Part shown: positions 1,108 through 32,766 of the stretch, one piece after another | How positions within the stretch are numbered: position 1 is the stretch's first letter | Layout: the number at the start of each line of letters is the position of its first letter | Assembly: GCA_965262915.1 (NCBI GenBank) | Contig: OZ253564.1 | Span: 1,728,001-1,792,000, forward strand | Origin: Candidatus Spongiisociaceae bacterium | Lineage (GTDB): Bacteria > Actinomycetota > Acidimicrobiia > Spongiisociales > Spongiisociaceae | DNA length: 64,000 nt | Direction: 5' to 3' | Made by a program: the position numbers and the translations under genes | The notes under the pieces: model-generated | What the model saw: the letters and a program-made list of their open reading frames with translations, nothing else | Told to the model about the DNA's origin: nothing | Database searches by the model: none

Positions 1108-2369
1108 GGAAAGCCTCCCAGCCCCCGGACAACAACCGGTAGCCGATACTAAGCCACACCCGCCACTAGCGGTCCGAGAAGCCGCAGCCGGCCCATTCTC
1201 CGATGCTTCGCCCCGGTCAGCTCACACCTTCTACCCGAGCGGTACCACCCGGAGTACGGCCCTGACCGGACGTGACCCCGTCCGCAAGGCCGGTCCGAGC
1301 GAAGGCGTGGCCAACCCCCTGCCTTACTCATGGCTGGTCCGTCGTAGTCACGGCTATGAGTCCCGAGGTCGGCCGACGGCCCGTCAAAGAACTCGTAGCG
1401 GCGTTGGTCGCTGTCTTGAGGCAGGCCGAGGATGTGGGGAACACTCCCGAGGAGATGGCTACTCGTAAGGGAACGTCTCCTCTACCCCGACCAGTACCTG
1501 AGCCACTTCCCTTGGGCTGCGTCATGGCAGGAGGCGCACCAAACAGGTGTCACCTTCGAGGACGTTGTCACATCATCGGGCTAGTGATCGCCATCAATGC
1601 CGCTCCTCTTGGACCGTTTGATGTGGACCACCATCACCGATGAACTGTTGGCGCGTCTGAGGATACTCAACGGTCGGGACACAGACCTGGCCGCTGACGC
1701 GACTCGGGTCGCGAACCGCCTGAGAGACGCCCTATTAGCCGTGTCCCCGGCTCTTGAACGTGCCGTGGGAGACAAGCTGATGTCGACACCTGGTCTCAGA
1801 GCTGCGCTGGTGAGGTGGCCCACCCCCGCGGCGCTGCGAACCGCTGGCAAAGCCCGCGTCCAGACGCTGATATCCAAACGGTCCAAGCGCACCGCCACCA
1901 CACTCACCGACCAGATCTGGGCTGCGCTCCGCTCCCAGACCGTCACGGTGGTTGCCGAAGCGACCTGGGGCGAAACTATTGGTGACCTGGCTGGCGGCCT
2001 GGACCGGATCATCGCCCGCCGCCAGCGGCTCGCAGCCGACATCGAGGAGGCGTTCTTGGAGCATCCGCTCCGAACAAGTCCTCAACAGCATGTGCGGGTT
2101 CGGGCCCCGCACCAGCGCCCGAACCCTCGCTGAGATCGGCGACCCACACCGTTTCGCCAACCCAGGCCGGCTAGCCGCCTACGCCGGGCTTGCCCCCGTC
2201 AACTGGCAATCAGGCCGCACCAGCAACACCCGACGGGCACGAGGCGGCAACCACCGCGTCGGCAACGCCATGTTCATCGCCGCGTTCGTCGCTGCCCAAC
2301 ACGACCCCGACGCCCGCGCCTACTACCTGCGCAAACGAGCCCAAGGCAAAGAACACACTCATAATGGAA

Positions 2370-2625
2370 TGGCTCTTTCCTTTGGGGGCCACCTGCGAAG
2401 ATGGGGTGGCCCCTTGGAGCGGGGGGCGGGTCTGACTCAAAAGAACACTGGCGTGCGCTTGCGTTGCCTTTGCGTTGATCTGTCGGCCTGTCCCCCGGTC
2501 CAGGGAAGAGCGGGGTTTCGGCTCCGAGCGGATGTGACCTAATAGGAGCTTTAGCTTCCCAGCACCGTGAGTGTACTGTCCACCGCTTTTTGCCGGAACC
2601 CCGCAACAAGAGTAGCGCCCTCGAG
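2370..2625 (+). ncRNA. Putative bridge RNA of IS110 copy A (ends approximate)
   Basis: Non-coding left end containing AAAGAACAC (2440-2448 = left target flank), TGCGTTG (2471-2477 = reverse complement of right target flank), ATAGGAGC (2542-2549 = right-end donor) and TGAGTG (2568-2573 = reverse complement of left-end donor). Confidence 0.8.
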
Positions 2626-2637
2626 GAGGTGGTGGTC

Positions 2638-3870
2638 GTGTCGGGGAATCGGGTTGATGTGTTCGGTGGGGTTGATACCCATCGTGACACCCATGTAGCG
2701 GCGGTGGTGGATACTGCTGGTCGCCTGTTGGGGTCAGAGTCGTTCGCAGCGGAGGGAGCTGGGTATCAGCGGTTGGTCGCCTGGCTGGGATCGCAGGGAC
2801 ATCTGGTCCGGGTCGGGGTAGAAGGAACCGGTAGTTACGGCGCCGGGCTGGCCCGCTATCTGACCGAGGCCGACATCGAGGTGGTGGAGGTGAACCGGCC
2901 GAACCGCCAGCTACGCCGCCAGAAGGGCGGGAAGTCTGACAGCGTCGACGCCGAGGCAGCAGCTCGGTCGGCCGCCTCGGGCCAAGCAACCGCAGTTCCC
3001 AAGTCCGGTGACGGTCCGGTCGAGTGCCTGCGGATGCTGCTGGTGGTCCGCCGCTCCGCGGTCAAAGCCCGCACCCAGGCCGCCAACCAGATCCACTCTC
3101 TGGTGGTTACCGGCCCTGAGCAGGTCAAACAACAGCTAACAGGCATGAATCTCAAAGCCCAGGTCCGAGTTTGCGCCCGGTTCCGACCCGGCACAGACCA
3201 CACCACCACCGCCTACGCGAAGCGTGCCCTGCGGCATCTGGCCCGCCGATACCAAACCCTCGACACAGAGATCGGCGAACTCGACACCGAGATCAGAGGC
3301 CTCTGCGCGAAGGCGAACCCGGCGCTGCTGGCGGCAGAAGGTGTCGGTCCTGACACAGCCGCCGCTTTGTTGGTCGCAGTCGGCGACAACCCCGGGCGTA
3401 TGAAATCGGAACGGTCCTTTGCGGCGCTGTGCGGCACCAGCCCCGTCCAGGCATCATCGGGACAGACCATGCGGCATCGTCTCAACCGGGGCGGCGACCG
3501 GCAAGCAAACTGTGCGCTGTGGCGCATCGCTACCACCCGGATACGCCACGACGCCCGCACCAAAGACTACGTAACCCGACGCCAGACCGAAGGAAAGAAC
3601 CGAAAAGAGATCATCCGCTGCCTCAAGAGGCACATCACCCGAGAAATATACCGACTCATCACTAACCCGCCACCAACCCCGAACTGCGCGAAGCTGCGCA
3701 CCCTACGCCAACAAGGCGGCATCACCATCACCCAAGCCGCCCACGCTCTCCGAACCCACCCTGCCCGCATCTCAGAAATCGAACGCGGCCGAGACCACAA
3801 CCACCAGCTCGCTACCCGATACCAGAACTGGCTCCGAACCCACCAACCCGCCCCACCATCATCGATTTGA
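2638..3870 (+). CDS. IS110 DEDD recombinase with C-terminal XRE-like HTH
   Basis: GGVDTH, VGVEGTGSYG and KSDSVDA (DEDD), SPVQASSG (Tnp serine), HRLNRGGDRQAN. C-terminal LRTLRQQGGITITQAAHALRTHPARISEIERG. GAGGAGG RBS before GTG 2638. Confidence 0.93.
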   Translation: MSGNRVDVFGGVDTHRDTHVAAVVDTAGRLLGSESFAAEGAGYQRLVAWLGSQGHLVRVGVEGTGSYGAGLARYLTEADIEVVEVNRPNRQLRRQKGGKSDSVDAEAAARSAASGQATAVPKSGDGPVECLRMLLVVRRSAVKARTQAANQIHSLVVTGPEQVKQQLTGMNLKAQVRVCARFRPGTDHTTTAYAKRALRHLARRYQTLDTEIGELDTEIRGLCAKANPALLAAEGVGPDTAAALLVAVGDNPGRMKSERSFAALCGTSPVQASSGQTMRHRLNRGGDRQANCALWRIATTRIRHDARTKDYVTRRQTEGKNRKEIIRCLKRHITREIYRLITNPPPTPNCAKLRTLRQQGGITITQAAHALRTHPARISEIERGRDHNHQLATRYQNWLRTHQPAPPSSI

Positions 3871-4045
3871 CAATCATAGGAGCATCAACGCAGCCGTCAT
3901 CTGCGTCGCCCGCCGACGCCCCAACATCATCCTGGCCATGCTCAAAACCCAAACCCCCTACCAACCACCCCAAACCCAACCCGAAACCCCCCAAAACCTA
4001 CCCCAAGCGGCTTGACAACAAGACAGAGACACCCCCCCGGGGGGG

Positions 4046-31300: not shown

Positions 31301-32530
31301 TCAAATCGATGATGGGGCGGTTTGGTGGGTGTGCAGCCAGTTCTGGTATCGGGTGGCGAGGTGGTGGTTGTGGTCTCGGCCGTGTTCGAGTGCTGAGATG
31401 CGATTGGGGTGGGTTCCGACGGCTTGGGCGGTCTGGGTGAGGGTGATGCCGCGTTGTTGGCGTCGGGTGCGTAGGCGGGCGCAGTTCGGGGTTGGGTGCG
31501 GGTTGGTGAGGAGCCGGTAGATTTCTCGGGCGATGTGCCGCTTGAGGCAGCGGATGATCTCCTTTTTCTTCTTGCCCTCGGCCTTGCGTCGTGCCACGTA
31601 GGCTTTGGTGGCGGCGTCGGTGCGCATCCGGGTGGTAGCGATCCGCCATAGCGCGTTGTTGGCTTGGCGGTTGCCGCCCCGGTTGAGACGATGCCGAAGG
31701 GTTCGTCCTGATGACGCCTGGACGGGGCTGGCGCCGCACAGCGCCGCGAAAGACCGTTCCGATTTCATTCGCTTGGGGTTGTCGCCGGCGGCGACCAACA
31801 ACGCGGCGGCTGTGTCAGGACCGACACCTTCTGTGGCCAGCAGGGCCGGGTTGGCCTGGGCGCAGAGACGCCGGATCTCGGCTTCGAGTTGGGCGATCTC
31901 TACGTCGAGAGCCTGATACCGGCGGGCCAAATGCTGTAGGGCACGCTTCGCATACGCGGTGGTGGTGTGGTCTGTGCCGGGTCGGAACCGGGCACAGGTT
32001 TTGACCCGTGCTTTGAGATTCATGCCCTTTAGCTGGTGTTTTAGCGGCTCGGGAGCTGTTACGACCAGCGCATGTATCTGGTTAGCGGCCTGGGTGCGGG
32101 CCTTGACCGCGGAGCGGCGCACCACCCACAGCATCCGTATGCACTCGACCGGGCCCACACCGGACTTGGGAACCGCGGTTGCTTCGCCCGAGGCAGCTGC
32201 CCGAGCTGCCGCCTCGGCGTCGACGCTGTCGGTCTTGCCGCCCTTCTGGCGGCGTAGTTGGCGGTTGGGGCGGTTGACCTCCACCACCTCGATGTTCATC
32301 TCGGTCAGGTAACGGGCCAGGCCGGCGCCGTAACTACCCGTTCCTTCCACCCCAACCCGAACCAACTGTCCCCGCGACTCGAACCAGGTGACCATTCGCC
32401 GATAACCGGATTCCTCCACCGCGAAAGACTCCGATCCCAGTACCCGCCCGACGCCATCCACCACCGCTGCTACGTGGACGTCCCGATGGGTGTCAACCCC
32501 ACCGTAGATAATCTGGTCTGCTTCTCCCAT
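31301..32530 (-). CDS. IS110 DEDD recombinase with C-terminal XRE-like HTH (paralog of 2638..3870)
   Basis: GGVDTH, VEGTGSYG, KTDSVDA, SPVQASSG; LRTRRQQRGITLTQTAQAVGTHPNRISALEHG. Confidence 0.94.
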   Translation of the reverse strand: MGEADQIIYGGVDTHRDVHVAAVVDGVGRVLGSESFAVEESGYRRMVTWFESRGQLVRVGVEGTGSYGAGLARYLTEMNIEVVEVNRPNRQLRRQKGGKTDSVDAEAAARAAASGEATAVPKSGVGPVECIRMLWVVRRSAVKARTQAANQIHALVVTAPEPLKHQLKGMNLKARVKTCARFRPGTDHTTTAYAKRALQHLARRYQALDVEIAQLEAEIRRLCAQANPALLATEGVGPDTAAALLVAAGDNPKRMKSERSFAALCGASPVQASSGRTLRHRLNRGGNRQANNALWRIATTRMRTDAATKAYVARRKAEGKKKKEIIRCLKRHIAREIYRLLTNPHPTPNCARLRTRRQQRGITLTQTAQAVGTHPNRISALEHGRDHNHHLATRYQNWLHTHQTAPSSI

Positions 32531-32544
32531 GATGCTCTTCTCCT

Positions 32545-32745
32545 CTAGGGGATAGACTCATTTCCGATCCCCGGACCCGTGTGCGGTTGGACAGGCCACT
32601 CACGGTGGAGAAGTTGAAGGCTCCTATTAGGTCACATCCGCCCCGGGTCACGGGCGTCACGCCCCAGGCCGGGAACGGGCCGACAGATCGATGAAAAGGC
32701 ACAAGGCCAGATTTCAGTTGGGTCAGACCCGCCCTAGCCCAGGAA
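32545..32745 (-). ncRNA. Putative bridge RNA of IS110 copy B (ends approximate)
   Basis: Minus strand carries ACTGAAATC (32710-32718) and TCATCG (32689-32694), matching the ISL3 IR target, plus donor guides ATAGGAGC (32620-32627) and TGAGTG (32597-32602). Scaffold is conserved with copy A. Confidence 0.8.
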
Positions 32746-32766
32746 CCCTCCAATTATGAGTGGATT

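Follow-up and report, generated by a model that had tools for sequence, protein, structure and literature searches.

Two related IS110-group elements with a common donor loop and different target loops: a probable natural case of bridge-RNA-guided recombination with one base shared by donor and target

The 64,000-nucleotide window (the whole stretch of DNA analyzed here) contains two complete IS110-family elements, A and B, whose left ends very probably encode a bridge RNA. The first loop of this RNA would read the target and the second the joined element ends, in a circle-borne, IS621-like recombination with one shared C. A sequence-only reading of the window had proposed such a programmable recombinase, and the proposal is supported by NCBIfam and Pfam matches, alignment to the IS621 transposase, the fold of the left-end scaffold, and covariation of guides with flanks. 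Since A and B differ in the first loop but agree in the second loop and in their ends, they would share donor specificity and insert at different sites. To judge from the sequences, the pair is a natural case of bridge-RNA-guided recombination in which element and target have one base in common.

Copy comparison placed the boundaries of both elements (Table 1). The left ends of A and B begin ACTCAT and the right ends of both finish ATAGGAGCATC; the genome has three copies of A, all with the same left end. The outer limits given in the sequence-only reading, 2356 and 32762, fall on the shared C, which immediately precedes each left end. A lies in the 3' portion of a further IS110-type transposase gene and B in the end of an ISL3 element; the ORF at 32767-33468, which overlaps the left target of B, matches DDE_Tnp_ISL3 (Pfam). 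When a 22-nt query consisting of the joined left and right flanks of B was used with up to two mismatches allowed, the unoccupied target, left flank directly followed by right flank, was found at 24 places in the genome. These empty sites fix the boundaries of B and indicate that its insertion caused no target duplication. The same kind of joined-flank search found no empty site for A in this genome. The left non-coding end measures 231 nt in B and, depending on whether the ORF is taken from TTG 2590 or GTG 2638, 233-281 nt in A; at the right end, the stop codon is followed by 16 nt in either element.

Table 1. Positions of the elements, guide windows, targets and promoter-like boxes (window coordinates, except element X)
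Feature	Position	Strand	Basis or remark
Copy A, complete IS110-family element, 1530 bp (ACTCAT...ATAGGAGCATC)	2357..3886	+	boundaries by copy comparison
A left target AAAGAACAC	2348..2356	+	9/9 identical to A LTG; last C (2356) is the shared core base
A -10-like CATAAT (left end)	2360..2365	+	sequence read
A bridge-RNA-like scaffold (target-binding loop, linker hairpin, donor-binding loop)	2420..2587	+	covariance model R1, 149 bits
A LTG AAAGAACAC	2440..2448	+	same sense as target top strand
A RTG TGCGTTG	2471..2477	+	reverse complement CAACGCA = core + right flank 3887-3892
A LDG ATAGGAGC	2542..2549	+	matches right end 3876-3883
A RDG TGAGTG (2568-2573) + handshake-like TA	2568..2575	+	reverse complement CACTCA = core + left-end start
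A recombinase ORF	2590..3870	+	426 aa from TTG 2590, or 410 aa from GTG 2638
A -35-like TTGACA (right end), 14 nt before element end	3867..3872	+	sequence read
A right target AACGCA	3887..3892	+	matched by RTG reverse complement
Copy B, complete IS110-family element, 1477 bp	31285..32761	-	boundaries by copy comparison and empty sites
B right target GATGA	31280..31284	-	flank sequence and empty sites
B recombinase ORF, 409 aa	31301..32530	-	Pfam, NCBIfam, alignment to IS621 transposase
B bridge-RNA-like scaffold	32582..32738	-	covariance model R1, 152 bits
B RDG TGAGTG (32602-32597) + handshake-like GC	32595..32602	-	sequence read, handshake test
B LDG ATAGGAGC	32620..32627	-	sequence read
B RTG TTCATCG	32689..32695	-	reverse complement CGATGAA; core + GATGA = right flank 5/5
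B LTG ACTGAAATC	32710..32718	-	9/9 against flank, one base back from junction
B left target ACTGAAATC + core C (32762)	32762..32771	-	inside end of ISL3 element
Element X, IS110-family RNA-guided transposase element, same genome	G000 3638544-3640027		NF033542, 185 bits

Both recombinases exceed the cut-off (140 bits) of NCBIfam NF033542, 'IS110 family RNA-guided transposase', with scores of 209 bits for A and 210 bits for B. Pfam detected PF01548 (DEDD_Tnp_IS110; E 5.6e-26 and 1.2e-23 for A and B) and PF02371 (Transposase_20; E 6.5e-20 and 1.7e-19) in the two proteins, and HTH_31/HTH_3 in the A recombinase as well. In phmmer searches of the PDB, the B recombinase aligned to the IS621 transposase 8wt6 (E 9.5e-12), and an ISCro4 match in the Tnp domain was also found (E 2.5e-10). 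The IS621 residues described by Hiraizumi et al. (2024, PMC11208158) are the acidic D11, E60, D102 and D105 and the conserved serine S241; in the alignment of copy B to 8wt6, GxDT, E(G/A)TG, KTDxVD and the SG of the Tnp domain are retained, as mapped by eye with a two-residue offset of the PDB chain allowed for. The recombinases of A and B are ~80% identical, and the ORF DNA arms are 84% complementary. Within the IS110 group, A and B represent two lineages of a single clade.

The sequences confirm that the left ends share a scaffold in which two variable windows, LTG and RTG, match the flanks of their own copy, and that the invariant windows, LDG and RDG, match the element ends common to A and B. 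Both points had been made in the sequence-only reading, and all the motifs it quoted from A and B are present where it had placed them. In A, G2477 of the RTG lies opposite the core C, and the AT that follows (2478-2479) is complementary to donor positions -2 and -1. In B, the RNA base following the LTG, U (32709), lies opposite the core.

The covariation of guides with flanks extends to homologous elements. Our family sample comprised the host genome and 13 related genomes, with 70 scaffold hits, 46 unique two-flank insertions and 17 guide types. Over these guide types, cognate guides and flanks match at 212/238 positions, compared with a shuffled mean of 107 (sd 11.7, maximum 165); 212 was reached in 0/100,000 shuffles, a count that overstates independence because the sequences are related. 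Neither the LTG matches (134/153) nor the RTG matches (78/85) were reached in 100,000 shuffles of these related sequences. For nine distinct target families, 118 of the 126 positions match (shuffled mean 56, sd 9). The weak matchers among the relatives are L118 (LTG 5/9) and L124 (LTG 6/9). On the donor side, the LDG corresponds to right-end bases -10 to -3, so that its match, unlike that of the LTG, ends 2 nt before the core, and the RDG corresponds to the core plus the first five left-end bases. Four LDG variants (ATAGGAGC, GTAGGAGC, ATAGAAGC and ATAGGGGC) mostly recur in the right end of the element that carries them, the exceptions being L099 and L124, each differing at one position. Two RDG variants occur across the family, mostly tracking their own left ends; in the subfamily with a left end beginning TGTGA, the RDG reads CTGTGA. 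One B-lineage copy occupies a site that matches its own guides at 6/14 positions and fits A-type guides, suggesting that guiding may take place in trans, by way of the donor loop common to both lineages.

The donor junction and the target sites agree in a single base, C, which is found at the crossover in 46/46 unique sites. The donor sequence is T-C-A, or T-C-T in the TGTGA subfamily, and the positions around C vary among targets: -1 is the donor T in 7/17 guide types and +1 is the donor base in 3/17. The CT dinucleotide core that characterizes IS621 and its close relatives, though not the IS110 family as a whole, is absent from the A/B clade, and the LTG and RTG footprints have a single base in common. 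Complementarity of the two nucleotides following the RDG to the target is seen at -1 in 13/20 and at -2 in 14/20 combinations of related sequences; shuffles reached these values 5 and 20 times, respectively, in 20,000, and 6 to 7 of the 20 combinations are without such pairing. The AU after the RTG is complementary to a donor AT in 19/20 combinations, with GT in the other. These observations suggest that the two bases upstream of C behave like the handshake bases of IS621, not like a core. The apparent 1-nt (C) core proposed earlier is thus supported at the level of sequence by the invariant crossover base, the one-base overlap and the handshake-like -1 and -2.

The LTG is in register 0 in A, C, F, G and others, and in register 1 in B, D, the own-genome E and L123; in register-1 types the RNA base opposite the core is always U, making a U:G wobble possible. 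The sequence-only reading had noted that the 1-nt offset of B would require such a wobble or slippage. The offset recurs in several guide types and represents a second register rather than a slip, and the wobble is retained as a possibility.

Folding and alignment of the left ends, the check suggested by the sequence-only reading, gave a scaffold consisting of a stem, an internal loop and a hairpin with compensatory changes. In 33 sequences, 93% of cells pair, against 31-50% in slid controls, and eight pairs have double changes versus 3.8 in shuffles (0/500). The outcome was divided: the target-loop fold was recovered by RNAalifold, with helix 1 pairing in 96.7% of cells and five pairs changed on both sides, but the donor-loop fold was not found by RNAalifold, and the left end of copy B folded alone was no better than shuffles (z -0.25). 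A donor loop drawn by hand by analogy pairs in 97% (inner helix) and 77% (outer helix) of cells in an alignment fitted to that structure. G-U pairs are frequent in the stems; since the opposite strand would have A-C in their place, a sense-strand RNA is indicated. Column conservation is lowest in the guides and highest in the core-binding G, LDG and RDG. The left-end RNA is not covered by any Rfam family. A 154-nt RNA-library contig is identical over 32579-32722 (144 nt, the LTG-to-DBL part of B), a match to a single contig of low depth for which DNA carry-over is possible.

In A, the TTGACA and CATAAT boxes are separated by a 17-nt spacer (14 + 3) only with the ends joined in a circle. Across the family, TTGACA (or TTGCAA, TTGACT) and CATAAT (or CATACT, GAGAAT) have the same 17-nt spacer at abutted ends, and no promoter-like site was found on the + strand of the integrated left end of A. 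A putative promoter is rebuilt across the circle junction, the -35 box coming from the right end and the -10 box from the left.

It is possible, though rather unlikely, that the mechanism is the same but has a dinucleotide core (donor TC or CA), a mismatch at the variable position being tolerated and later fixed by replication or repair, so that the 1-nt core is only apparent. For IS621, Hiraizumi et al. [quoted passage not shown] However, a tolerated mismatch predicts either parental base at the junctions, whereas all left ends start with the donor base, all right flanks retain the guide-matching +1, left -1 is always the target base, and right ends read ATC (44/46) or GTC (2/46), with the donor T at -1 in 46/46. 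Also against this explanation, the two nucleotides following the RDG tend to be complementary to -1 and -2, which resembles handshake positions 6-7 of IS621 and not core positions, and the LTG-RTG overlap is a single base in the clade versus CT in element X. The latter, an internal control analyzed as A and B were, has guide-like words in its left end that match its own flanks.

In IS200/IS605 elements, subterminal guide sequences pair as DNA. That the guide windows of A and B likewise act as DNA, a single-stranded or extruded left end pairing with the target, is highly improbable. Complementarity alone cannot separate RNA from DNA, but the G-U pairs of the stems become A-C mismatches on the complementary strand, the putative promoter in the ends is complete only across the circle junction, the RNA-library contig covers exactly the guide-bearing part of B, and the protein scores above the cut-off of a family for which RNA use has been demonstrated (Durrant et al., 2024, PMC11208160). 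We give just as little credence to the idea that the left end is a structured 5' leader controlling transposase expression, with site choice left to the protein (e.g., to its C-terminal helix-turn-helix tail) and the matches due to shared ancestry. The left end does lie directly 5' of the ribosome-binding site, and proteins of the clade carry an additional HTH_31/HTH_3 tail not present in IS621. Yet nine unrelated target families match their own loops at the 118/126 positions given above, recombinases as similar as those of A and B use unrelated sites, and the loop columns are the most variable in an otherwise conserved scaffold.

In the favored bridge-RNA mechanism, the first internal loop would read the target on both strands, its 3' side (the invariant G plus 5 nt) pairing with the stretch of top strand that begins at C and continues into the right target. 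The second loop would read the element's own joined ends: ATAGGAGC, AT, C and ACTCA. By analogy with IS621, the element would excise as a circle, and the junction would form the TTGACA-17 nt-CATAAT promoter driving the RNA. A DEDD/Ser recombinase tetramer, together with both loops, would then exchange top strands 3' of C, after which the 2 nt following each core-binding G would pair with -1 and -2 of the partner as a handshake. The base common to donor and target would be the single C, versus the CT of IS621.

Much of this arrangement corresponds to IS621 as described by Durrant et al. (2024, PMC11208160) and Hiraizumi et al. (2024, PMC11208158): a DEDD/RuvC-like and Tnp(Ser) recombinase; a long left end that precedes the gene and encodes the RNA, putatively so in the clade; a pair of internal loops, predicted ones in the clade, of which the first varies and the second is conserved; a left guide of 9 nt including the core and a right guide of the core plus 5 nt; a -35 box in the right end and a -10 box in the left; a probable counterpart, next to the core-binding bases, of the two handshake nucleotides that can pair with partner DNA; and insertion without target duplication, seen here from the empty sites of B. 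The A/B clade differs in its protein, which is only distantly similar (8wt6, E 9.5e-12) and carries ~60 aa of extra C-terminal helix-turn-helix, in the one base (C), not CT, common to donor and target, in the two registers of the LTG, and in the LDG match ending 2 nt before the core. Unlike IS621, which is from E. coli, it occurs in relatives of the window's genome, which has ~64% G+C. Within the same genome, element X has the IS621-like CT overlap of LTG and RTG, in contrast to the single base of the A/B clade. The target of element X is the donor-loop DNA (GATAG|GAGC) of the A/B clade.

ISCro4/IS622 (PDB 9t56; Perry et al., 10.1101/2025.05.14.653916) belongs to the same family, and the design rules given for it, a matching core and non-matching positions 6-7, mirror the C and the -1, -2 positions of the clade; unlike ISCro4/IS622 with their CT or GT cores, the A/B clade has no common dinucleotide. 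In the seekRNA-guided IS1111/IS110 elements of Siddiquee et al. (2024, PMC11187229), an RNA from the non-coding region sets the target, the same phenomenon as in A and B; the experiments described there mostly concern IS1111, in which, unlike in A and B, the RNA lies downstream of the gene and the target-matching regions are in reverse order. The novelty of natural guide reprogramming implied by the sequence-only reading was overstated: it was through covariation of guide loop and target in natural IS110 elements that Durrant et al. (2024, PMC11208160) made their discovery, and Siddiquee et al. (2024, PMC11187229) write of 'Natural re-programming' among relatives. As these reports describe both the kind of system and its natural reprogramming, the A/B clade adds variant details to a known kind.

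Copies A and B belong to one insertion-sequence family and lie in the window in opposite orientations, with 84% complementarity between their ORF arms (2664-3860 and 31308-32504); the 27 kb separating A from B was counted outside the feature. Each copy contains a single ORF (426/410 aa in A, 409 aa in B) with DEDD_Tnp_IS110 and Transposase_20 domains and a short C-terminal HTH_31/HTH_3 match. Both products score 209-210 bits against NCBIfam NF033542, IS110 family RNA-guided transposase (cut-off 140). The closest solved structures are the IS621 (8wt6, E 9.5e-12) and ISCro4 (9t56, E 2.5e-10) transposases, and the GxDT, E(G/A)TG, KTDxVD and SG motifs are retained in the alignment to them. 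The XRE-like HTH_31/HTH_3 tail (residues about 350-405; window 3640-3870 and 31301-31480) falls beyond the IS621-aligned part and beyond NF033542; it is also present in three of the five relatives' ORFs examined. A 103-nt stretch occurs elsewhere in the window in two direct copies (486-588 and 666-768; 72% identical, 180 nt apart).

Elements of the A/B clade, predicted promoter parts and element X, a different IS110-family element of the host genome (G000)
Feature	Position	Strand	Description
Copy A	2357-3886	+	1530 bp
Copy B	32761-31285	-	1477 bp
TTGACA	right end, 14 nt before element end		-35 part of predicted junction promoter
CATAAT	left end, after 3 nt		-10 part of predicted junction promoter
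Element X	G000 3638544-3640027 (L133:165-1648)		406-aa ORF; NF033542, 185 bits

The scaffold common to A and B consists of GGTCTGAC, 12 nt, YGGC...GCCTT, 7 nt and ATCTGTCGG, and continues further along as GTGACCTA-ATAGGAGC...TGAGTG-NN-CTGTCC. Its variable windows are AAAGAACAC and TGCGTTG in copy A, which is flanked by AAAGAACAC on the left and AACGCA on the right, and ACTGAAATC and TTCATCG in copy B, which is flanked by ACTGAAATC-C and GATGA. The constant part ATAGGAGC is found again at the right end, as ATAGGAGCATC, and TGAGTG is complementary to C plus the left-end start ACTCA. The sequence-only reading had described such a scaffold, with guide windows that match each copy's own flanks, and the observation is confirmed: all motifs that it quoted were located in A and B where it had placed them, and the positions it gave, 2356 and 32762, fall on the C immediately outside the left end of A and of B, respectively. 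Its interpretation of these left ends as bridge RNAs, with left and right target guides (LTG and RTG) in the first loop and left and right donor guides (LDG and RDG) in the second, is supported at the level of sequence.

The left flank of copy B joined to its right flank gives a sequence with 24 occurrences at ≤2 mismatches, otherwise unoccupied ISL3 ends. Insertion thus adds exactly ACTCA...GCATC with zero duplication, and one C is assignable to neither element nor target. For copy A, no empty site was found in the host genome at up to 2 mismatches. Insertions of the clade lie mostly within other mobile elements: the target of copy B is an ISL3 end, and that of copy A is the 3′ part of another IS110-type gene, which has a weak PF01548 match and, immediately upstream of the insertion point, a part 32% identical to the Tnp region of A itself. 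A perfect homopolymer palindrome (a C run, then a G run; window about 4033-4052) lies just downstream of this split gene. A diverged subfamily whose left ends begin with TGTGA (L110, L113-L115 and L118-L120, in the related genomes G005, G006, G020 and G021) has the LDG ATAGGGGC and a right target guide identical to that of copy A, and its insertion site is TACGA-C-AACGC, within apparent GDSYDNA codons (read by eye) of a transposase gene.

The sequence-only reading had proposed covariation in homologous elements as a check, and there the guides track the flanks. DNA comparison gave 37 left-end matches in the host genome, where 34 matches to the strict target-loop pattern fall into at least 8 guide types, and R1, a covariance model of the left-end scaffold, matched 19 of 61 related genomes, the host among them. 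When 40 stretches from 13 R1-positive genomes were parsed, together with the host genome, for scaffold, ends and flanks, 70 scaffold matches were obtained, 47 of them with both flanks, corresponding to 46 unique insertions and 17 guide types. With one representative scored per type, agreement with the element's own left flank is 134 of 153 positions for the 9-nt left guide, and agreement with the right flank is 78 of 85 for the five variable positions of the right guide. The combined 212 of 238 matches were reached in 0 of 100,000 shuffles (mean 107, sd 11.7, maximum 165), and collapse to 9 unrelated target families left 118 of 126 matches (shuffled 56, sd 9); the compared sequences are kin, and neither shuffle result reads as a probability. 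The match is plainly evident for every guide type singly.

These counts leave out 23 of the 70 scaffold matches, for which a left end, donor loop or right end could not be recognised within 1250-1650 nt; among these are copies that are truncated, nested or degenerate (types H, I and J) and 2 probable chance matches in the host genome. Also dropped were 8 of the 42 scanned loci, without a match to the target-loop pattern: L095, L062 and six that do match R1 (L106, L116, L126, L128, L131 and L132). The flank parse therefore favours close relatives, and with both exclusions the sample leans to those that are intact. A single-protein search of genome contigs had given only two loci, L061 and L062, the latter then dropped for want of a scaffold pattern match.

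The crossover base is C in all 46 unique sites, and the right guide always ends with an invariant G facing it. The left guide is found in two registers. In register 0 (types A, C, F, G, K, M and L130) its last base lies on the core C; in register 1 (B, D, the host E type and L123) the 9-nt match stops one position short of it, which puts the following U of the RNA opposite the core, possibly as a U:G wobble. Slippage, an option raised earlier for the 1-nt offset of copy B, does not hold: register 1 is not a slip. It is constant in all cognate B copies, and in two close E-type relatives the register and the 2 nt that follow the RDG differ together (GU for the host, UU for G002). Across 20 combinations these 2 nt are complementary to target position -1 in 13 and to position -2 in 14, values that shuffles reached 5 and 20 times in 20,000, respectively, and in 19 the AU following the right target guide complements the donor AT. 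The arrangement resembles that of the IS621 handshake guides, described as pairing with positions 6-7 beside the core after top-strand exchange (Hiraizumi 2024, PMC11208158; Perry 2025 preprint, 10.1101/2025.05.14.653916).

From this handshake-like pairing we infer that positions -2 and -1 would behave as handshake bases and that C alone would behave as the core. The main rival is a dinucleotide core in which a mismatch is tolerated. The base before C is the donor T in 7 of the 17 types and the base after C is the donor base in 3; as a control, the same analysis of element X in the host genome gave left and right target guides that overlap by CT. The single-base core agrees with the apparent 1-nt (C) core of the sequence-only reading, C standing at the crossover of all 46 sites and the two bases before it being handshake-like.

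On the donor side, each of four LDG variants mostly recurs in the right end of the element that carries it (L099 and L124 deviate at one position), and the TGTGA subfamily carries an RDG matching its own left end. The two parts of the predicted junction promoter have a 17-nt spacer only when the ends are joined as a circle, likewise for variant ends; no promoter-like site was found on the + strand in the integrated left end of A. The target-loop fold was recovered by RNAalifold. In an alignment of 33 sequences, which was fitted to the model, 93% of cells pair (31-50% when partners are slid as a control) and double changes occur at 8 pairs, compared with 3.8 in shuffles (0/500). The many G-U pairs argue for a sense-strand RNA. 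Information per column is lowest in the guides and highest in the core-binding G, LDG and RDG, in agreement with the variable first loop and conserved second loop described for bridge RNAs (Durrant 2024, PMC11208160).

When single sequences were folded, the left end of copy A was better than shuffles (z -4.66, partly from an additional 5′ hairpin) and that of copy B was not (z -0.25). With whole left ends as input, RNAalifold paired the RDG with the opening bases of the left end, a fold that was set aside because those bases include the putative -10 box and transcription probably begins downstream of them. No Rfam family reached the gathering score in the whole window, and a permissive scan of the left end of copy A gave only chance microRNA and lncRNA matches (E 2.9-8.6). 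One metatranscriptome run contained a 154-nt contig identical over window 32579-32722, from the copy B left guide through the donor loop, at low depth and with DNA carry-over possible. For runs X1-X4, of which X1 and X2 were only guessed to be RNA, the shares were small (0.05-0.12), and parts of copy B that lack contig cover were not taken as evidence.

One copy in the host genome (3665109-3663632, minus strand) shares 98.9% identity along all 1478 nt with a B-lineage copy whose ISL3 site is cognate; the guides of the copy at 3665109 fit the site that it occupies at just 5/9 and 1/5 positions. The best of 18 guide pairs for this site is of the A type, with 8/9 (register 1) and 4/5, that is 12 of 14 positions. 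Donor guides and ends are common to A and B, and the two loops in the IS621 synaptic complex are described as deriving from different RNA molecules (Hiraizumi 2024, PMC11208158); the simplest reading is therefore that an A-like RNA directed a B-lineage circle, likely in trans via the shared donor loop. An off-target event, or a guide type outside those sampled, may also account for this insertion.

Element X lies in reverse orientation in the donor-loop DNA (GATAG|GAGC) of at least 3 copies of the A/B clade in the host genome, including near 287300 and 4421900, and its junction sequence also occurs in L111 and L112 (G006 and G005). The words AGGCTCCT and TGATAG in its left end fit its own target, with CT as their overlap. 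This RNA-guided element appears to target another element's guide gene. The guides of the H-type copies at about 287194 (L012:1474-1723) and about 293227 (L009), ACTAGACAC and GCTGGGG, match the junction of clade donor-loop DNA with an element X end (TAGACA-C-CCCAG), and the copy at 287194 occupies such a junction sequence, a nested targeting of three levels. At about 293137 (L009:1434-1683) a left end is joined at the donor loop straight to the right-end-like ATAGAAGCATC, perhaps through an internal deletion, leaving a gene-less miniature element. L103, L104 and L105 (G021) carry tandem partial left ends, with the first ~56 nt through the left-guide DNA repeated before the full element. The pattern suggests that the element recombined there at its own guide-encoding DNA, which resembles a left half-target; a preprint on "half-match" recombination (10.64898/2026.08.31.748434) offers a comparison.

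Taken jointly, the data could describe recombination across one shared nucleotide with a two-register left target guide, a common donor loop that enables insertion in trans across lineages (the B copy in an A-type site being its natural record), a second IS110 element on the clade's donor-loop DNA that closes a self-referential RNA-guided network, and at least 8 mutually orthogonal target loops with one donor and one scaffold. We hold this combination tentatively, at somewhat under an even chance. If the single-base core and flexible register are true, the matching-dinucleotide design constraint on bridge recombinases would be relaxed and the essential parts of the IS621 geometry identified. 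The value of the clade lies in a clean natural data set: about 34 scaffold copies of at least 8 guide types with one donor specificity in one genome, together with empty sites for one target, the canonical CT-core element X as an internal control and a likely case of guiding in trans.

Bridge RNAs, seek RNAs and their reprogramming in nature have been in print since 2024, and the NCBI name for the protein family already reads "RNA-guided transposase". Bridge RNAs were found through the same covariation, in 5,511 target and 2,201 donor pairs, and natural IS110s were binned by LTG and RTG against target motifs (Durrant et al. 2024, PMC11208160); natural re-programming is described among relatives (Siddiquee et al. 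2024, PMC11187229), and a 2026 preprint (10.64898/2026.10.21.760802) writes of a core of variable length, a "core of length c". The A/B pair is thus an expected case of already described bridge-RNA guiding, without a new principle relative to what these sources describe. Our literature search found no paper with "single-nucleotide core" or like wording; 1-nt cores may be listed in the supplementary tables that accompany Durrant 2024 and the 2026 preprint. Compared with IS621, the clade has a single base common to donor and target, uses its left guide in two registers, has an LDG match that stops 2 nt short of the core, and carries an HTH tail.
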